Below are positions 88-6,455 of a DNA stretch of 6,455 bases, piece after piece (the stretch's first letter is position 1; every line of letters begins with the position of its first letter). This DNA is from a virus. Its lineage: Duplodnaviria > Heunggongvirae > Uroviricota > Caudoviricetes. A program made the position numbers and the translations under genes. The stretch is from IMG/VR virus record IMGVR_UViG_2751185961_000002; one strand, 5' to 3'. The notes beneath the pieces are model-generated. The model saw nothing but the letters and a program-made list of their open reading frames with translations, searched no databases and was not told where the DNA came from.

Positions 88-645
88 TCAGTAAGTTGGC
101 AGCATTACCTGAACTGCTTTATTGGCATCAATTCGTACAATATGAGCCCATTCCTTCATCTGTTCAGTGATCAGGCCTTTTTTGTAAATCATCTGAATAC
201 GTTGCGACAGCGATTCTTTTCCTGCTTCATCGCCGAGCAGTTTTTTCGTGGAGATATCGAGGACTCTGCGACAAAGAATAACCACTGTGTCGTACCGCCT
301 CCTCTGTAAATCCTCTTTTGCCTCAACAAAAGTACGGTCTGCAACCGGGGGCGTATATTCTGGTGCGGTAATTTTTTTGACCACAGGATAGATCTTGCGG
401 AAACGGTACTGGCTATTTCCTGAAATCAGAATATCGAGGTCTTTTTTCTGGCTTTCCGCCATGGGACCGTGATAGTGGTCTGATGGGATTTCAACAATAG
501 CAACACCTCCTCGATGACAACTTCTGCATACAAAAGCGACGTTAAAAAAAGGTGTTTTTTCAATTTGTTTTTCGGCAAATGCCTCAATAACAGCTCGCTC
601 TTTTAAACAGTGCGGGCATGTGATATCAAAGGAGACTAAACCCAT
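88..645 (-). CDS. Hypothetical protein, 185 aa: N-terminal zinc ribbon (CPHC...CRSC) plus C-terminal DUF4145-like domain; candidate defence/exclusion moron gene
   Basis: ORF 88..717; start assigned to the ATG at 645-643 (MGLVSFDITCPHC...) because a GAGGAA Shine-Dalgarno lies 4 nt upstream on the minus strand (complement of 650-655). Two CxxC pairs about 23 aa apart. The C-terminal stretch LCRRVLDISTKKLLGDEAG...KGLITEQMKEWAHIVRIDANKAV matches my memory of the DUF4145 consensus (...aRraLE...Lg...kg.i...l.ew.d.iR..GN.aaH). Domain assignment is from memory, not a search. Confidence 0.65.
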   Translation of the reverse strand: MGLVSFDITCPHCLKERAVIEAFAEKQIEKTPFFNVAFVCRSCHRGGVAIVEIPSDHYHGPMAESQKKDLDILISGNSQYRFRKIYPVVKKITAPEYTPPVADRTFVEAKEDLQRRRYDTVVILCRRVLDISTKKLLGDEAGKESLSQRIQMIYKKGLITEQMKEWAHIVRIDANKAVQVMLPTY

Positions 646-889
646 GGATATTCCTCGCGAAATTAAAGAAATTAACGAAATCATTGAGGTTACTGATCGC
701 CCCGAGTTTACCCTCATGCGTCGTTATGAAACAGGAACCGACGAACAAAAATACATCATGGTTACAGCATTGGCTGTGATGGCGATAGAAAGGGAGCGAA
801 GGGAAAAGGACGTAATGGTTATTCCTGAGAGAAATGATTCACCGGATTTGAGATGGCAGGAGCCGGAGTGGGATGTGGTAATCCGGTGA
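644..889 (+). CDS. Possible small acidic protein (81 aa) of unknown function; start overlaps the divergent start of the 88..645 gene
   Basis: ATG at 644-646 preceded by AAGGAG (629-634) with 9-nt spacing; open to TGA at 887-889; sequence MDIPREIKEINEIIEVTDRPEFTLMRRYETGTDEQKY... No recognised family. May be spurious. Confidence 0.25.
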   Translation: MDIPREIKEINEIIEVTDRPEFTLMRRYETGTDEQKYIMVTALAVMAIERERREKDVMVIPERNDSPDLRWQEPEWDVVIR

Positions 890-936
890 TTGATATTTCT
901 CTGGGGTAAAGCGCCGCCAGAATGACGGCGCGGTGG

Positions 937-1242
937 TTAAGCATGAGGCGAAATTTCTGCCGGGCGGTATTTTGTTGAGAGATGAGATACGTCAACTTCT
1001 CTTTCCGCTTTTTCGAGGCTCCATGCCGTCTGGAGACGAATCCATGAAGACGGAGTTCCACCCAGGACAGCAGCGAGACGAACAGCCATTTCAGGAGATA
1101 TTGTCGCATTACCTGAAACCAGTCGCTGAACAGTGGAAGGCGCGACATCAAGCGCTCTTGCCAGTTCCCTGATTCCAATATTCTGATCTTCCAGAATATC
1201 AGCAATAATTTCTCCGGGATGAGGGGGGTTAAACATCGCCAT
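937..1242 (-). CDS. higA: HigA-family antitoxin (HTH/XRE DNA-binding), 101 aa
   Basis: Sequence ...NPPHPGEIIADILEDQNIGIRELARALDVAPSTVQRLVSGNATISPEMAVRLAAVLGGTPSSWIRLQTAWSLEKAE matches the HigA addiction-module antidote signature (HPGE...helix-turn-helix...WLRLQ). Start ATG (1242-1240) overlaps the stop of the upstream toxin gene by 1 nt (TAATG). Confidence 0.85.
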   Translation of the reverse strand: MAMFNPPHPGEIIADILEDQNIGIRELARALDVAPSTVQRLVSGNATISPEMAVRLAAVLGGTPSSWIRLQTAWSLEKAEREVDVSHLSTKYRPAEISPHA

Positions 1243-1520
1243 TAGTGGTAATCCTCGTAGTTAAGAATATAAGCATCGCCGTTCCGAAACTCGAATGTGA
1301 TTCTCCAGTTACCGGAGACGGTGACAGACCATGTATCGGATCTGTCCCCCTGCAACTGGTGCAGCCTGTACCCGGCAAGGTTAATATCATCAATGATTTC
1401 AGCTTGATCTATTACCTGAAGGCGCGTTCTCAGGCGTTTAACGTGATTGGGATTTATGCCTGATGCATTTCCTGTTTCAAAGAAACGTTGAAGTCCTTTG
1501 TGTTTCCAGCTTTTTATCAT
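1242..1520 (-). CDS. higB: HigB-family toxin (RelE/ParE superfamily mRNA interferase, 'plasmid maintenance system killer'), 92 aa
   Basis: Start chosen at the internal ATG (1520-1518, MIKSWKHKGLQRFFETG...) with AGGAAA SD about 6 nt upstream. C-terminus ...GDRSDTWSVTVSGNWRITFEFRNGDAYILNYEDYH is the classic HigB motif (cf. Rts1 HigB). Toxin-first order and 1-nt overlap with higA are typical of higBA. Confidence 0.85.
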   Translation of the reverse strand: MIKSWKHKGLQRFFETGNASGINPNHVKRLRTRLQVIDQAEIIDDINLAGYRLHQLQGDRSDTWSVTVSGNWRITFEFRNGDAYILNYEDYH

Positions 1521-1547
1521 GCTTGTTTCCTGTTGCGTTACGCGAAT

Positions 1548-1576
1548 CATTATAGCGACTGTTGTGTAATGCGCAA
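1548..1576 (-). promoter_or_regulatory. Candidate sigma70 promoter for higBA: -35 TTGCGC (complement of 1571-1576), 17-nt spacer, -10 TATAAT (complement of 1548-1553)
   Basis: Perfect TATAAT on the minus strand about 28 nt upstream of the higB start; partial palindrome GTTGTGTAATGCGCAAC overlaps the spacer and -35 and could be a HigA operator. Confidence 0.4.
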
Positions 1577-1583
1577 CGGTTGT

Positions 1584-1613
1584 TTGACAAAAATAGGTAT
1601 CCGGGATTATATT
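1584..1613 (+). promoter_or_regulatory. Candidate plus-strand sigma70 promoter, divergent from the higBA promoter: -35 TTGACA (1584-1589), 18-nt spacer, -10 TATATT (1608-1613)
   Basis: Perfect -35 hexamer and 5/6 -10 hexamer; predicted start near 1620, about 80 nt upstream of an intrinsic terminator. Confidence 0.4.
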
Positions 1614-1676
1614 CACCGCACGCCAGCAAAATCTGGCGTCGGGATTAGGAACCCCGGATATTCAACCGCGACAGAC

Positions 1677-1699
1677 ACACGCCGCGAGCGTGTTTTTTA
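1677..1699 (+). terminator. Rho-independent terminator (tR2-like position, or terminator of a short leader RNA)
   Basis: Stem ACACGC (1677-1682) / GCGTGT (1688-1693), loop CGCGA, followed by TTTTTTATT. Confidence 0.55.
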
Positions 1700-1863
1700 T
1701 TGTCGTATGCACACGCACATCTGAATTATGGTGGGGCGTATGGGGCAGCCGAAAGGCTGGCCGGTTGGTTGATCCGGTAGTTCCTAACCCTGTACGTCTC
1801 GCCACCCGATGATTAGGAACCTGACGGTGGTGAATGAAAAACTCATCAACCGGAGGCGTCACT

Positions 1864-2535
1864 ATGACAACTCAAGTTTCTGTTGAAACACTCTCCACGA
1901 TTACTTACAAGCAGATCCCCGTTATCACTACTGAACTTTTGGCGCACCTTTACGGCACAGAAGCTATTCGTATTCGCCAGAATCACCACGAAAACAAAGG
2001 TCGTTTCATTGAGGAAAAACACTTCTTCAAACTTGAAGGTGAAACTTTACGTGAGTTCAAGCACAGAGTAGCTTTTAACTACTCTGTGAAAATTGCCCGT
2101 AACGTTCGTTCCCTCATCCTCTGGACTGAACGCGGCGCTGCCCGTCATGCAAAAATGCTCGAAACCGATCGGGCGTGGGAGGTGTTCGAAAAACTGGAAG
2201 ACTGCTATTTCAGCCAGGGAAAAACAGCACCAACCGAACAGCAGCCGCAGATTCAGCCACAATTCACAGCCGAGGAAATCATCCTCCTTTGCTACATGCA
2301 ACTCTGGATGGAAAAAGCCCAGGACCTTAGCAAGCAGCTGTACCCCATAATGAAAGAGCTGAACTCCTCATACACGAACAAGCTGTATGACATTGCGTTT
2401 GAGACTATCTACATGGTGACGAAGAACAGAGACGCGCTACTAAGGGAGGTAACACGTCTCGACATGTCAAGTTCCGTTATCCAGCGGGCCATGCCAATGC
2501 TGAAAAGCCTGCGGGCAAGACAATTTGAATTCTGA
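1864..2535 (+). CDS. ORF6N-domain phage protein (Roi / antirepressor-like DNA-binding), 223 aa
   Basis: Start at ATG 1864 (MTTQVSVETL...) with GGAGG SD 7 nt upstream. N-terminal region IPVITTELLAHLYGTEAIRIRQNHHENKGRFIEEKHFFKLEGETLREF fits the ORF6N consensus (...LAelYgvetk.lnqnvkrN.eRF.e..fmFqLt.eE...). C-terminal half not recognised. Confidence 0.8.
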   Translation: MTTQVSVETLSTITYKQIPVITTELLAHLYGTEAIRIRQNHHENKGRFIEEKHFFKLEGETLREFKHRVAFNYSVKIARNVRSLILWTERGAARHAKMLETDRAWEVFEKLEDCYFSQGKTAPTEQQPQIQPQFTAEEIILLCYMQLWMEKAQDLSKQLYPIMKELNSSYTNKLYDIAFETIYMVTKNRDALLREVTRLDMSSSVIQRAMPMLKSLRARQFEF

Positions 2536-2540
2536 AACTA

Positions 2541-2562
2541 AAGGAGCTTCGGCTCCTTTTTT
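2541..2562 (+). terminator. Rho-independent terminator between the ORF6N gene and ninB (nin-region terminator)
   Basis: Stem AAGGAGC (2541-2547) / GCTCCTT (2552-2558) with UUCG tetraloop, followed by a T-run. Confidence 0.65.
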
Positions 2563-2589
2563 GTTGGGAAAATCCAGTGAGAGGGAATA

Positions 2590-3000
2590 ATGAACCAGAC
2601 TATCTTCCTCCGAAGTAAGCAGCAGCAACAATTCGCCATTAACGCCATCCTTGCAACAACTCTCGATAAAGACAAACCCGTTACGATCCGTATCACCGAT
2701 TACAAGCGTAATCTCGCTCAAAATGCAAAATTTCACGCGATGGTCGCTGATATATCCCGCCAGGTTAAGTGGTGCGGCAGGTGGCTAAAACCAGAACAGT
2801 GGAAAGTTTTGTTAATCAGCGGTCATGCCGTGGCGACAAAACAGGAAGCTGATGTTTTGCCAGGTCTTGAAGGTGAATACGTCAATATCCGCGAAAGCAG
2901 TGCGCAGATGAGCGTGAAGCGTATGGCAAGCCTGATTGAGTACACAACTTCCTGGGCTGTGGATCAGGGTGTCAGATTTACCGACAGGAGGTATGAATGA
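2590..3000 (+). CDS. ninB: NinB (Orf-family recombination mediator), 136 aa
   Basis: GAGGGAA SD before ATG 2590. Matches lambda NinB as I recall it (e.g. ...[34 protein letters not shown]... versus lambda ...RSLDQNRKLWACLGDVSRQVEWHGRWLDAESWKC...). Confidence 0.9.
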
Positions 3001-3188
3001 GACGACAGCGACGAAGCATCACCGATATCGTCTGTGAAAACTGCAATTACCTTCCAACCAAACGCTCCCGAAATAAACCCAGGCCAGTCCCCAAAGAATC
3101 TGATGTTAAAACCTTCAACTATACGGCTCACCTGTGGGATATCCGGTGGCTAAGGCGTCGAGCAAGATTTAATTGTCACTCCGGATAG
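2997..3188 (+). CDS. ninE: NinE, 63 aa
   Basis: [56 protein letters not shown]... is nearly identical to lambda NinE as I recall it; start overlaps the ninB stop (ATGA). Confidence 0.9.
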
Positions 3189-3208
3189 CCTACTGCATGA
3201 GGAATAAG

Positions 3209-3502
3209 ATGATGACAAACCTACGCAAAGAAGCGCGCGGCAGAGAATGCCAGGTACGGATTTATGGCGTATGCAATGGCAACCCTGAAACTACAGTTCT
3301 GGCGCATTACCGAATGGCTGGAATTTGCGGAACGGGAACAAAGCCAGATGATCTGTTGGCTGCATGGGCCTGTAGTGACTGCCATAATGAAATCGATCGC
3401 CGTACTCGCATTCTCGACAACAACGACGCCAGACTTTACCACCTGGAAGGCGTGATCAGGACGCTGGCGATATTGCTGAAGGAGGGGAAGATTAAGTCAT
3501 GA
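3209..3502 (+). CDS. ybcO: YbcO-like DUF1364 protein (putative nin-region nuclease), 97 aa
   Basis: Start at ATG 3209 (GAGGAA SD at 3200-3205). Sequence ...EARGRECQVRIYGVCNGNPETTVLAHYRMAGICGTGTKPDDLLAAWACSDCHNEIDRR... matches the YbcO/DUF1364 family found between ninE and rusA in DLP12-type prophages. Confidence 0.8.
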   Translation: MMTNLRKEARGRECQVRIYGVCNGNPETTVLAHYRMAGICGTGTKPDDLLAAWACSDCHNEIDRRTRILDNNDARLYHLEGVIRTLAILLKEGKIKS

Positions 3503-3861
3503 ATGAATATGAGTTTGTGCTTCCCTGGCCGCCGACGGTGAATACCTACTGGCGAAGACGGGGAAGCCAGTACTACATCAGCGATAAAGGCCAGAAATAC
3601 CGAAAAGACGTACAGCAAATCATCCGGCAACTCAGATTAGACATTTTCACTAAATCACGACTTCGCATCACAATTATTGCTGAACCACCAGATTCCCGCC
3701 GTCGCGACCTCGATAACATCCTGAAAGGTTTACTCGACTCTCTTATCCACGCCGGATTTGCGGAAGACGACGTGCAATTCGATGACATTCGCGTAATTCG
3801 CAGCGTGAAAGTGCCTGGCGGTAGAGTGGGGATAAAAATCACCGAACTGGAGAACATATGA
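3499..3861 (+). CDS. rusA: RusA Holliday-junction resolvase, 120 aa
   Basis: ...FVLPWPPTVNTYWRRRG...PDSRRRDLDNILKGLLDSLIHAGFAEDDVQFDDIRVIR... carries the RusA signature (LPWPPS.N.Y, RRRDLDN catalytic region); start overlaps the ybcO stop (ATGA). Confidence 0.9.
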   Translation: MNEYEFVLPWPPTVNTYWRRRGSQYYISDKGQKYRKDVQQIIRQLRLDIFTKSRLRITIIAEPPDSRRRDLDNILKGLLDSLIHAGFAEDDVQFDDIRVIRSVKVPGGRVGIKITELENI

Positions 3862-4058
3862 ACGCCACAATTCAAACAATACCGGAATTGCTTATCCAGG
3901 CACGAGGCAATATGACTGAAGTTTCACGAAAACTGAACTGTAATCGTGCTACGGTCAGAAAATATGTCGGTGATAAAGAAGGCAAACGGCACGCCGTCGT
4001 CAACGGTGTCCTTATGGTTCATCGTGGATGGGATAAGGGGAAAGCTACTGATGCGTGA
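3858..4058 (+). CDS. ninH: NinH, 66 aa
   Basis: ...TIPELLIQARGNMTEVSRKLNCNRATVRKYVGDKEGKRHAVVNGVLMVHRGW closely resembles lambda NinH as I recall it (...TIPDMLVEAYGNQTEVARRLKCSRGTVRKYVDDKDGKMHAIVNDVLMVHRGW...); start overlaps the rusA stop. Confidence 0.85.
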   Translation: MNATIQTIPELLIQARGNMTEVSRKLNCNRATVRKYVGDKEGKRHAVVNGVLMVHRGWDKGKATDA

Positions 4059-4293
4059 TATTCAGCAGGTGCCTGAACGCATGGCTTTATTCAGGTCGTC
4101 TGGAAAAGCGCATGAGCAGCGTAATAGCGGAGTTCATGGCGAAGAGTATATGAACAGATTATTCGAATGCTATATGAGACTGAAGCACGGAGATCGCTAT
4201 GACCTGACATGTGATGCTGACGGCTTCTACTGCCGTGAAGTTGTGAAACGAATGTTTGAAGTGTGGTGTCATTGTAAAGGATGGGGGCTGTGA
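4051..4293 (+). CDS. Small Cys-rich protein, 80 aa, unknown function; possibly a Q-related zinc-binding module
   Basis: ATG 4051 overlaps the ninH stop (ATGCGTGA); MRDIQQVPER...CYMRLKHGDRYDLTCDADGFYCREVVKRMFEVWCHCKGWGL. The N-terminus MRDIQxVxER resembles, from memory only, the start of the short 933W/DLP12-type Q antiterminators. Unverified. Confidence 0.5.
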   Translation: MRDIQQVPERMALFRSSGKAHEQRNSGVHGEEYMNRLFECYMRLKHGDRYDLTCDADGFYCREVVKRMFEVWCHCKGWGL

Positions 4294-4907
4294 TGCGGCT
4301 AACCCCAGTATTCGGCATGGTTAACTTTATTAATGATGCTCATTTCCGCCGCATATGGAGGCATCCGAAGAAAATCATTAACTCTCGTCAGAAAGCATGG
4401 GTTCACTACATGCTACAGGTATGGGGAAATGTTAACGCTGGTGATGATTCTCCTTGTGGTGCAATTAACGTTATTGGGCGACTGATGATTCGCAGTCAGT
4501 GGAGCGATGACAAAGCTAAGCAGATTGAGTCTGTTGTCATGCGTCTGTATGAAGAAGACGGACTACGTGGAGATGAACTCCATCAGAAAGCCCGAGAACT
4601 GGTCATCCCTCAGTCATCGGCAGGTAATATCATTGCTCTCGCCAAAGAATCCGATGATGCTGCTTTCGTTGAACGTGTGATGGTTGAGACCTTTCATCGT
4701 GAAAGCCCTGTCCGTGATGTAGCTATTAGGCGATATTGCAATCGCGACAGCACGCAAGATATCGCCAGGATGATTTCTCAGATAACAGGAGTTGATATTC
4801 AGTATTGCCGGAGGCGGGTCGTGTGGTGCGAGAGGGTCCTTGATTCAGAAATGTTTTATGCAATGAAGCGAGAATTGGAGAAAGAACTTCTAGTGATTGC
4901 TGGATGA
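4293..4907 (+). CDS. 204-aa protein in the Q (late antiterminator) position; function assigned by synteny only
   Basis: ATG 4293 overlaps the upstream TGA (TGATG) and follows a GGGGG SD-like run. Last gene before the candidate pR'-tR' unit, which is where Q sits in lambdoid phages. The sequence does not resemble lambda Q as I recall it, so the family is unassigned. Confidence 0.5.
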   Translation: MRLTPVFGMVNFINDAHFRRIWRHPKKIINSRQKAWVHYMLQVWGNVNAGDDSPCGAINVIGRLMIRSQWSDDKAKQIESVVMRLYEEDGLRGDELHQKARELVIPQSSAGNIIALAKESDDAAFVERVMVETFHRESPVRDVAIRRYCNRDSTQDIARMISQITGVDIQYCRRRVVWCERVLDSEMFYAMKRELEKELLVIAG

Positions 4908-4931
4908 TGCAAAATATTTTTTGTAAATGCG

Positions 4932-4960
4932 TTGCTTTCGAGAAATGAAAGTAGTATGTT
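4932..4960 (+). promoter_or_regulatory. Candidate late promoter pR': -35 TTGCTT (4932-4937), 17-nt spacer, -10 TATGTT (4955-4960)
   Basis: Position immediately downstream of the Q-position gene and about 110-130 nt upstream of a strong terminator mirrors the lambda pR'-6S RNA-tR' layout. Hexamers are only 4/6 matches. Confidence 0.35.
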
Positions 4961-5067
4961 TTGTGTATGCTCGGAGCAAAAGCGCACTGAGAAGCGAAAG
5001 AGAAATCCTGATTTACCTCGGTCGTCGATAATATTTAGGATCGGCATACTGGCTAGATTAGGTAAAG

Positions 5068-5098
5068 GCCTCGGCAGAAATGTCGGGGCTTTTTGTTT
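5068..5098 (+). terminator. tR'-like rho-independent terminator
   Basis: Stem GCCTCGGC (5068-5075) / GTCGGGGC (5082-5089), two G-U pairs, loop AGAAAT, then TTTTTGTTT. The following GCACAACAGGTAAGAGCATTGA matches my memory of the sequence just downstream of lambda tR'. Confidence 0.7.
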
Positions 5099-5171
5099 GC
5101 ACAACAGGTAAGAGCATTGAACCCGCAGACCTCGTGGAATTGGTGAAAGGTGTGCGCAGTGCTCTTATCGT

Positions 5172-5298
5172 TGTGGTGAAGCTCAATGGCGAGCTAGCAG
5201 ACAGGCGACTGTGAAAATACTAGTCATGTAGCGGATCGCCGCGCGTATTGTAATCGGCAGCGCACCGATGGGAGCTGGTTCGATTCCGGCCGCCACAA
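5172..5298 (+). ncRNA. tRNA-like element in the late leader (atypical; probably a degenerate tRNA or tRNA-derived structure, not a canonical tRNA)
   Basis: Canonical T-arm GCTGG-TTCGATT-CCGGC (5274-5290); perfect 5-bp anticodon-like stem ATCGG/CCGAT (5253-5257 / 5265-5269) with 7-nt loop CAGCGCA (no U33); acceptor-like pairing TGTAGCG (5227-5233) / CGCCACA (5291-5297) with one mismatch; no D-arm; no encoded CCA. Enclosed by a longer stem GTTGTGGTG (5170-5178) / CGCCACAAT (5291-5299). Confidence 0.35.
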
Positions 5299-5417
5299 TC
5301 CAAACTGAGCCGTAGCCTCTGGGTGTCCTGAATTCATCAGTGATAGTTACGCTGCGGCCTTCTACATACGATTTTTGTGAAAAGCGGGTGGCAAGAGGCT
5401 GCGAAATTTTTAAATAC

Positions 5418-5637
5418 CTCACAATTCCACAGCTTGATGATTGTCTGGCTGCCGGAGAATTTGTTAAAAATTACATCGCGTGGTGAATCCCCCTCAGCGG
5501 CGGGGCATCTGGCAAAGTGTATGATCCAGCGAACATGCAAATTCAGTAGCCAGGCTGAATTTACCGGGAGGCACCTGGCACCATGCGACAGACAGAAATT
5601 AGGCTATACTTCAGCCCCTCTCCGGAGGGGCTTTTCT
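5418..5637 (+). repeat. Late-leader repeat unit A (about 220 nt), ending in an intrinsic terminator
   Basis: Shares with unit C the blocks CTCACAATTC, ATTGTCTGGC, TTTGTTAAAAA, TGGTGAATCCCC...GGGGCAT, ACCGGGAGGCACC.GGCACCATGC and the terminator CAGCCCCTCTCCGGAGGGGCTTT. Terminator stem GCCCCTC (5614-5620) / GAGGGGC (5625-5631), loop TCCG, then TTTTCT. Confidence 0.6.
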
Positions 5638-5689
5638 GTGCAGGATGTATCACAGTTTCCTGAATTCTGAGTACTGTCCTGTTACTCAG

Positions 5690-5849
5690 GGTGCTATATT
5701 TTCTGACGTGATGAAAGTCTGCCGGAAGGCGGAACGTATCGGAAATGACCCAGTAGAGAAAACGTTGACTCAGATACCGATGCTGAGTTACCGGGAAACC
5801 GGCATCACATGACCGCTATCCTTCCAGGCTCGCTCCGGCGGGCCTTTTT
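5690..5849 (+). repeat. Late-leader repeat unit B (diverged or partial copy), ending in an intrinsic terminator
   Basis: CTGAGTTACCGGGAAACCGGCATCACATGACC aligns with CTGAATTTACCGGGAGGCACCTGGCACCATGCGAC of unit A. Terminator stem GGCTCGC (5827-5833) / GCGGGCC (5838-5844), same TCCG loop, then TTTTT. The 5' boundary is approximate. Confidence 0.45.
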
Positions 5850-5886
5850 ACTGCAGAAAACAGTTTTCCCGTAAAATGCCACGTTA

Positions 5887-6119
5887 CTCACAATTCAGGC
5901 TGGCGATTATTGTCTGGCCAGCGGGAAGTTTGTTAAAAAAATATGGCATGGTGAATCCCCTGTGCGGAGGGGCATATCAGCGACAGGTGTTTGGTCACAC
6001 CCCTTATCCTTTCTGGTGCGGGTTCAGGTGCTGATACTGAACTCACCGGGAGGCACCCGGCACCATGCATGAACGGTACATAGCGCTACTCTCCAGCCCC
6101 TCTCCGGAGGGGCTTTCTT
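5887..6119 (+). repeat. Late-leader repeat unit C (about 233 nt), ending in an intrinsic terminator
   Basis: Same conserved blocks as unit A. Terminator stem GCCCCTC (6096-6102) / GAGGGGC (6107-6113), loop TCCG, then TTTCTT. Confidence 0.6.
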
Positions 6120-6126
6120 GTTGGAT

Positions 6127-6156
6127 AAAAAAAAGCCCGCGCCGGGAAGCGCGGGT
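6127..6156 (-). terminator. Minus-strand rho-independent terminator, face-to-face with the unit C terminator
   Basis: A8 run (6127-6134) then hairpin GCCCGCGC (6135-6142) / GCGCGGGT (6149-6156), loop CGGGAA. Read on the minus strand this is a GC-rich hairpin followed by U8. Confidence 0.5.
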
Positions 6157-6356
6157 GGCAAGGAATAAACAACAAAACGTGAAGTGATCAATTTTCAGCT
6201 GGCGAATAATACCCGACAGTAATCACTCTGCGCAACTGTATGGTCTTTTTCGTATTGCGGGCTGTAGTCATCCTCCTGTTTCTGAACCCTTGTCCATGAC
6301 TGACGTCAGCCCGCACCTTATCTTGATTGCATACACTATCCCTGCCGGGAGGAATA

Positions 6357-6455
6357 ATGGCATTTAAACACTATGACGTGGTCAGGGCATCATCGCCGTC
6401 AGACCTCGCAGGAAAACTGACGCAAAAACTGAAGGAAGGCTGGCAACCCTATGGT
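6357..6455 (+). CDS. 5' end of a late-operon gene, probably a DUF1737-like small phage protein (continues beyond the window)
   Basis: GGGAGGAA SD then ATG 6357; MAFKHYDVVRASSPSDLAGKLTQKLKEGWQPYG... The ...L..KL.EGWQP.G motif resembles small DUF1737 proteins that precede the lysis cassette in lambdoid phages. Family assignment is from memory. Confidence 0.55.
   Translation, partial: MAFKHYDVVRASSPSDLAGKLTQKLKEGWQPYG

Follow-up and report, generated by a model that had tools for sequence, protein, structure and literature searches.

The window analysed here is a 6,455-nucleotide (nt) stretch of a tailed-phage record (Caudoviricetes, IMGVR_UViG_2751185961_000002), the nin region of a lambdoid Escherichia coli/Shigella-type prophage, in which three open reading frames (ORFs) lie on the minus strand, at 88..645 (185 amino acids (aa), with its ATG at 645), 937..1242 and 1242..1520. 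With a probability of roughly 0.8, we read the first of these as a pseudogene: a prophage gene, antisense to the early rightward operon, that encoded a zinc-ribbon/HEPN (ZnR-HEPN) ribonuclease (RNase) distantly related to the abortive-infection protein RAZR and that the insertion sequence IS1 has cut in codon 179, with its 5′ four-fifths left in the window. The other two minus-strand ORFs form a separate, intact HigBA toxin–antitoxin (TA) cassette, and the conserved partner of the RAZR-like gene is a divergent 81-aa gene (ORF81) on the opposite strand. A preliminary description of the window had placed all three minus-strand ORFs at the right coordinates, and had joined them as a plausible three-gene defence module (feature coordinates are collected in Table 1).

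The evidence for truncation comes from the junction itself. Bases 1–112 match, at 100% identity, IS1 ends that 4,958 of 5,426 complete E. coli genomes carry under the annotation ‘IS1 family transposase’ (9,265 records), with both the terminal inverted repeat and the insA start the same as in known IS1 copies; similarity to genomes sharing the prophage region begins at base 110 and never before, and a base-by-base comparison of the window with an intact locus (L001) puts the break at 109|110. Codon 179 is made of a native ‘ca’ and the ‘g’ of the IS1 inverted repeat, giving Gln, and the VMLPTY and stop that follow are the IS1 repeat ggtaatgctgccaacttactga read in frame. The L001 allele has 224 codons, of which residues 1–178 are the same as in the window protein, and then continues H-TDEVFTPIEASQILSFTEMFLVYAFTLPAMVEARREQKRSDSASI; intact orthologues are 224 aa long and read RIDANKAVH followed by 45 further residues, where the window literally reads RIDANKAVQ. 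The preliminary description had noticed this string and taken the Gln, standing where the conserved His was expected, as the possible mark of a non-catalytic or sensor variant. As the Gln and the tail come from the IS1 fusion, this ‘Gln variant’ is an artefact of the junction, and the 185-aa ORF is real but is not a complete gene. The conserved Arg…His catalytic motif is present in intact members (R171, H179) and absent from the window copy, its His codon having been destroyed by IS1; with both catalytic His179 and the last HEPN helix lost (aa 186–222 of the intact protein in a structural model), the window copy is almost certainly a dead gene. Neither the fusion protein nor the IS1|gene junction matched anything in the complete E. 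coli genomes, viral contigs or a gene-call collection, and exact-sequence look-ups of the 185-aa and 209-aa readings of the truncated protein, like an exact search for the junction in the viral contigs, returned no match; the insertion therefore looks recent and private. The 209-aa reading starts at an upstream ATG at 717, a candidate start that we rejected in favour of 645 on the family alignment, the RefSeq annotation and a conserved CATG at the start codon. Separately, the IS1 end at 1–109 accounts for the apparent ‘matching’ of bases 1–1900 to 9,409 E. coli records in our initial search.

Intact relatives of the truncated gene form a sizeable family, with 199 clusters at 50% identity (E ≤ 1e-30, full-length coverage), and carry the native motif R171-x3-N175-x3-H179. 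Amongst 132 full-length cluster representatives from an exhaustive HMMER search, the His is conserved in 130, the Asn in 128, the Arg in 123 and each of the four zinc-ribbon cysteines in 119–131; in an alignment of 33 natural homologues C10, C13, C40, C43, R171 and N175 are invariant and His179 is present in all 33, whilst Gln occupies this position in none of the 33 and in a single one of the 132 representatives. The CxxC…CxxC zinc ribbon named in the preliminary description is thus a true family feature, with putative metal binding, and this region gives weak matches to zinc ribbons of the RPB9/TFIIS type. The C-terminal region had been described as DUF4145-like and HEPN-related, and a Pfam search agrees: the truncated copy matches PF13643 (DUF4145) just above the gathering score (25.6 vs 23.1 bits, E 1.3e-5), and the intact allele scores 36.9 bits (E 3.9e-9, profile positions 11–88). 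DUF4145 (clan CL0291) was placed in the HEPN superfamily by Anantharaman et al. (2013, PMC3710099), who already recorded members joined to a zinc ribbon and members encoded by dsDNA viruses; most described members are fused to restriction endonucleases, helicases and similar proteins, whereas the ZnR-HEPN proteins here are small, stand-alone and prophage-encoded. In an AlphaFold2 model of the intact protein (predicted local distance difference test, pLDDT, 88.3) the N-terminal zinc ribbon is built of four strands (pLDDT about 90) and is followed by a short helix and a strand, a linker whose prolines are invariant, and a C-terminal domain of five helices, an all-alpha up-and-down bundle as expected of a HEPN fold.

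The nearest characterised architecture is that of RAZR (ring-activated zinc-finger RNase), which is the same as PD-T7-4 of E. coli UMB1727 (PDB 9y9c; PMC9519451; PMC13017515) and which functional screening of E. coli had brought to light (Vassallo et al. 2022, PMC9519451). RAZR pairs a zinc-finger domain (ZFD) with a DUF4145-HEPN domain and acts as an abortive-infection RNase (Nature 2026, PMC13017515): the ZFD, which alone carries trigger recognition, binds rings of Gp77 (24-mer) or portal (12-mer), RAZR assembles around them so that the HEPN dimers are repositioned and their sites activated, ssRNA is cut, and R146A or H154A each abolish defence (PMC13017515). The intact ZnR-HEPN protein has the same order of domains, an N-terminal Cys4 zinc ribbon with CPHC as its first knuckle followed by a C-terminal DUF4145-type HEPN with R-x3-N-x3-H, and shares with RAZR a proline-containing linker, a size of about 220 aa and carriage on mobile elements. 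RAZR-Ec was rebuilt from two database fragments, giving a protein of 219 aa, the length of PDB chain 9y9c, with R146 and H154 on invariant columns. In an hhalign comparison of the ZnR-HEPN family with the RAZR-family profile (E 1.5e-5, 98 columns) the catalytic motifs align residue for residue, R171 and H179 falling on RAZR R146 and H154, and a single BLASTP comparison of P0001 with RAZR-Ec gave 27% identity over 109 aa (E 3e-5). These results are suggestive but not strong evidence of remote homology in the linker and HEPN region. The earlier guess of a defence or abortive-infection role for this class of protein is in keeping with the RAZR/PD-T7-4 architecture (PMC13017515), and the accompanying word ‘uncharacterised’ holds for this particular family but not for the kind of system, of which RAZR is a known case. 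By analogy with RAZR and HEPN biology, the intact 224-aa protein would be a latent HEPN RNase in the lysogen, activated by a superinfecting phage; sensing of a phage-made structure through the zinc ribbon would switch the RNase on and lead to abortive infection. Because the equivalent H154A mutation abolishes RAZR defence (PMC13017515), the window copy, which differs from RAZR in having no His, would be incapable of RNase defence.

The two families also differ in setting. ZnR-HEPN genes occupy accessory slots of lambdoid prophages, the RAZR homologue that was inspected an island associated with an integrase; RAZR is a single-gene system, whereas one ZnR-HEPN subfamily has an adjacent divergent gene of 60–81 aa; a second subfamily, of 212 aa, stands alone. 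DS-38, described from the DefensePredictor screen as a validated E. coli defence protein with HEPN and zinc-finger domains, of which only the HEPN superposes on PD-T7-4 and the zinc finger is different (bioRxiv 10.1101/2025.01.08.631726), resembles the ZnR-HEPN family in this last respect and, compared by description only, may belong to the same family or to a third one. Most database gene calls of the canonical RAZR family (P0084–P0203 in alignment A2) are only 146–169 aa long and begin at an internal Met just 5′ of the linker, without the zinc-finger domain; these are either systematic start mis-calls or many homologues without the zinc finger.

Several observations weigh against the account given so far. 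The left side of IS1 lies outside the window, so that any target-site duplication or surviving 3′ remnant of the gene is out of view. The PADLOC model for PD-T7-4 (hidden Markov model PDLC04109) matches the family only partially (E 0.0022, 15.5 bits) and does not recognise it as RAZR, reciprocal profile searches against RAZR reach 15–21 bits, which is not significant database-wide, the PDB RAZR chain 9y9c scores E 0.19 against the ZnR-HEPN profile, and the hhalign probability for the kinship is only 79.5%. Between zinc ribbon and linker the ZnR-HEPN family has a helix and a strand, about 30 residues in all, that RAZR lacks, and the zinc-ribbon regions of the two families fail to align. Given the weak profile scores and the unalignable zinc ribbons, we therefore treat the ZnR-HEPN proteins, on their sequences, as a separate and distant family with the architecture of RAZR and not as RAZR orthologues; the ligand that they sense may differ from that of RAZR, as the zinc-ribbon regions cannot be aligned and the extra residues lie beside them. 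RNase activity, trigger and abortive-infection phenotype are carried over from RAZR, PHROGs labels the family (phrog_1305) ‘DNA binding protein’, and the truncated zinc-ribbon fragment could in principle still be made and functional.

This last point is the basis of an alternative that we regard as improbable, in which the truncated protein (zinc ribbon, linker and three HEPN helices) is expressed as a decoy, a dominant-negative or a binder of phage rings or of full-length homologues. The start codon, the Shine-Dalgarno sequence (GAGGAA, 5 nt 5′ of the ATG at 645) and the 178 native codons are intact and the same as in functional-looking alleles, and trigger recognition in RAZR resides in the ZFD by itself (PMC13017515), but a HEPN bundle missing its last core helix ought to be unstable, the absence of junction and fusion protein from all collections searched points to a recent, unselected insertion, and IS1 insertions are usually simple knock-outs. 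A consensus promoter scan found no minus-strand promoter for the RAZR-like gene.

We consider it equally improbable, or slightly more so, that the family is a DNA-binding regulator of the prophage and not a nuclease defence protein, as the phrog_1305 label would have it. Through PHROGs the same name has passed to RefSeq phage records (NC_029120.1 gp19, L161 1828–2502) and is borne by gp19 of phage 75/02 Stx, and zinc ribbons, here with their weak RPB9/TFIIS-like matches, often bind nucleic acids; nevertheless, no experimental source for the label was found, the R…N…H signature present in 93–98% of representatives is the pattern of active HEPN RNases, and RAZR is an RNase (PMC13017515). Since the fold and motif evidence points to a HEPN RNase, ‘DNA binding protein’ is probably a misnomer, one that conceals a candidate defence gene of Shiga toxin (Stx) phages.

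The ZnR-HEPN family is overwhelmingly prophage-borne, being carried almost only by temperate phages of Enterobacterales: 106 confirmed hits came from viral contigs against 14 among species-representative genomes, and the RAZR-like gene is present in 37 of the 5,426 complete E. coli genomes. A neighbour census (Pfam on 149 ORFs within 1.3 kb at 26 diverse loci) returned NinB (8), Phage_rep_O (6), phage lysozyme (5), DnaB (4), lambda P (4), Rz (3) and the small terminase (3), so that the prophage accessory-slot context proposed in the preliminary description is upheld by neighbours that are phage replication, nin, lysis and terminase genes. Two slots are used, one between the replication genes and ninB (the 215–224-aa subfamily) and one between the lysis and terminase genes (the 212-aa subfamily). 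Members of the latter (‘MAMLSID...’; L009, L010, L017, L076–L097) lack a divergent small gene and have a ribosome-binding site upstream in the ordinary way; phage lysis genes flank them on one side and the small terminase gene on the other.

The gap of about 290 nt that had been noted between higA and the zinc-ribbon gene is not an empty spacer, its 291 nt being filled by the plus-strand ORF81. This gene carries a coding signal (codon-position entropy 0.88/0.76/1.27, the third position being most variable) and is under purifying selection (median dN/dS 0.29). Of 93 loci, about 60 have a divergent small gene beside the RAZR-like gene, with protein identity as low as about 35% (Photorhabdus and a Zoogloeaceae metagenome-assembled genome), and one of the sequenced Stx phages, 75/02 of Shigella, carries the pair. 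Every locus with the divergent pair (59 loci by the CATG test, with 30 distinct junction sequences) has the head-to-head CATG start overlap, the Shine-Dalgarno sequence of the RNase gene lies inside codons 3–5 of the small gene in 29 of the 30 distinct junctions, and the reverse is the case in 15 of 30. Searching in the other direction, the RNase gene was found in 51 of 59 loci recovered with the small gene, the other eight being one E. coli phage lineage; in the E. coli genomes the small gene occurs in 48 and the RNase gene in 37. ORF81 is therefore the usual, conserved partner of this RAZR-like subfamily; a strictly obligate partnership was considered and rejected on the eight RNase-less loci and the partnerless 212-aa subfamily. 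In L115–L122 (e.g. L115 1686–2500) the RAZR-like gene is replaced by unrelated ORFs of 166 aa (plus strand) and 96 aa (minus strand), and the small gene is kept with its N-terminus changed to MNNKINIPLEIKE..., placing a recombination breakpoint at the shared start codon. The ORF81 protein is modelled as a three-helix bundle (pLDDT 72), from which no fold assignment was obtained.

Because ninB, the other genes of the rightward operon and the small gene all read in one direction, the rightward transcript runs antisense to the RNase gene over its whole length. One tentative idea, which we put forward knowing that the odds are against it, is that the RAZR-like gene and the divergent 60–81-aa gene form a two-gene unit locked by the CATG, in which the RNase would be made in the lysogen and the small protein, expressed on the lytic transcript, would be the phage’s own off-switch (an inhibitor, or antisense-coupled silencing), keeping its own portal or ring assemblies from triggering the abortive-infection RNase after induction.

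HigBA, by comparison, is an independent, exchangeable type II TA cassette and not a partner of the ZnR-HEPN gene. The identification of higB and higA in the preliminary description is secure: a RelE-fold HigB-like toxin is paired with a helix-turn-helix (HTH) HigA that scores 88.4 bits against a TIGR02607 equivalog cut-off of 47.7, the toxin gene comes first, with an AGGA Shine-Dalgarno sequence 7 nt 5′ of its ATG, and the two genes share a stop/start overlap, TAATG, indicative of translational coupling. Toxin-first order, HTH HigA, stop/start overlap and an upstream promoter, putative here, are those of the Rts1/Vibrio/Proteus type, from which nothing unusual sets this pair apart beyond its being prophage-borne and, as a cassette, interchangeable in its slot with different RelE/HTH pairs. 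The consensus scan found no minus-strand promoter for higBA; the putative one, read by eye, would stand back-to-back with a plus-strand promoter-like site at 1584–1613. The full higBA pair is carried by 22 of the 5,426 complete E. coli genomes and adjoins the ZnR-HEPN gene, in intact form, in 14 of the 37 that have the latter, and over all 93 loci the two are adjacent in only two. Elsewhere the ZnR-HEPN gene stands beside a different HTH/RelE pair (strain G1/2, whose intact allele is WP_032144013.1, and 14 viral loci) or other TA pairs (phages 75/02 Stx and PhiR12_3), and higBA is found without the ZnR-HEPN gene, as in STEC2018-553, always adjoining the ORF6N gene. A neighbourhood survey had been proposed as a check for co-occurrence with higBA; no RelE or HigB family was among the top 25 neighbour families at the 26 diverse loci, HTH_3 appeared in only 2 of the 26, and conserved co-occurrence of HigBA with the ZnR-DUF4145 gene was not found. 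It is this pattern of adjacency in a minority of loci, substitution by other TA pairs and occurrence without the ZnR-HEPN gene that makes HigBA an independent cassette. We give next to no credence to the idea of a complete, naturally non-catalytic His-to-Gln sensor forming a superinfection-exclusion or abortive-infection module with HigBA, for although the ORF is open from the ATG at 645 to the stop at 88, the three genes share a strand within 1.5 kb, and the arrangement recurs with an intact gene in the 14 genomes above, the Gln and all that follows it come from IS1, Gln is all but absent from natural homologues (0/33 aligned, 1/132 representatives), most loci have other TA pairs or no higBA whilst higBA also occurs by itself, and a plus-strand gene sits between the ZnR gene and higA.

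The TA exchange site lies between the small gene and the antirepressor module (L002 4835–5462, L004 3001–3978, L161 2801–3362, L162 2803–3486); its alternative occupants are higBA, a 109-aa RelE/ParE toxin paired with an HTH antitoxin, further RelE/HTH pairs and, in O157:H7 strains, an orphan higA followed by a ParD-family gene. The small gene and higA converge, and the 47 nt that separate their ends contain a GC-rich hairpin (gcgccg-9 nt-cggcgc, 911–931) with no clear T-run on either strand, which may terminate transcription in both directions or stabilise RNA. Beyond the putative higBA promoter, and back-to-back with it, the promoter-like site, an isrK-like small RNA (sRNA) and a C4-type RNA (1584–1830, plus strand) make up an antirepressor control module like those of P1 immI and Gifsy-1 isrK-anrP. 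Two plus-strand copies of the STnc100 sRNA family (5448–5641, 139.9 bits; 5917–6125, 129.8 bits) lie 3′ of the Q-like antiterminator gene, and no tRNA genes were found in the window. The nearest complete genome is E. coli JNEC-KY204, with 98.7% identity over 97% of bases 110–6455.

Table 1. Coordinates, strand and supporting evidence of features in the 6,455-nt window.
Feature	Position	Strand	Evidence or remark
IS1 terminal segment	1..109	-	inverted repeat ggtaatgctgccaacttactg... at 109->87; rest of IS1 left of the window
insA start within the IS1 end	GTG 53->51	-	reads V-A-S-I-S-I-R-C-P-S-C...; read directly from the sequence
Truncated RAZR-like ORF	native codons 1-178, 112..645; broken codon 179, 109..111; six IS1 codons and stop, 88..108	-	truncated by IS1, almost certainly a pseudogene
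Zinc-ribbon domain, aa 1-52	490..645; Cys codons 616-618, 607-609, 526-528, 517-519	-	conservation, model, weak profile matches
Remaining HEPN (DUF4145), aa 100-178	109..348; R171 codon 133-135, N175 121-123, destroyed His179 109-111	-	profile, alignment, model
Palindromic CATG, ATG of RAZR-like gene (-) and of ORF81 (+) overlapping head-to-head	643..646	.	locus comparison
ORF81, 81 aa, PHROG 8371	644..889	+	phrog_8371 E 1.4e-55; RefSeq WP_000354247.1
higA antitoxin, 101 aa, HTH_3, intact	937..1242	-	TIGR02607 equivalog, E 2e-25; identical to WP_001240641.1
higB toxin, 92 aa, RelE/ParE superfamily, intact	1242..1520	-	PF05015 E 1.1e-21; phrog_3066 ‘toxin of TA system’
Probable higBA promoter, TTGCGC-16 nt-TATAAT	1549..1576	-	putative; read by eye, below the promoter-scan threshold
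Promoter-like site, TTGACA-18-TATATT	1584-1613	+	promoter scan
isrK-like sRNA	1620-1698	+	68.9 bits
Terminator-like hairpin with the isrK-like sRNA	1677-1693	+	
C4-type antisense RNA	1724-1809	+	67.5 bits
ORF6N/P22_AR_C antirepressor	1834-2535	+	profile matches
NinB	2590-3000	+	profile matches
NinE, YbcO, RusA, NinH	nin region	+	profile matches
Q-like antiterminator	4281-4907	+	profile matches

The copy in this record is thus ordinary in itself, an accessory prophage gene that belongs to a known kind and has been disrupted; its apparent active-site change is an artefact that would mislead hypotheses of a ‘sensor variant’, and ORF tails beside insertion-sequence ends need checking. The intact genes are a sizeable prophage-borne ZnR-HEPN family with the RAZR architecture, and because it is barely detected by the PADLOC PD-T7-4 model and probably mislabelled in phage databases, its members may give Stx and other lambdoid phages an anti-phage activity that has gone unrecognised, with a zinc-ribbon region unlike that of RAZR that may recognise other phage structures. 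The new lead is the gene pair locked by its start codons: a head-to-head start overlap with a small gene under purifying selection is unusual, and could show how a prophage restrains a suicide RNase during its own lytic cycle.

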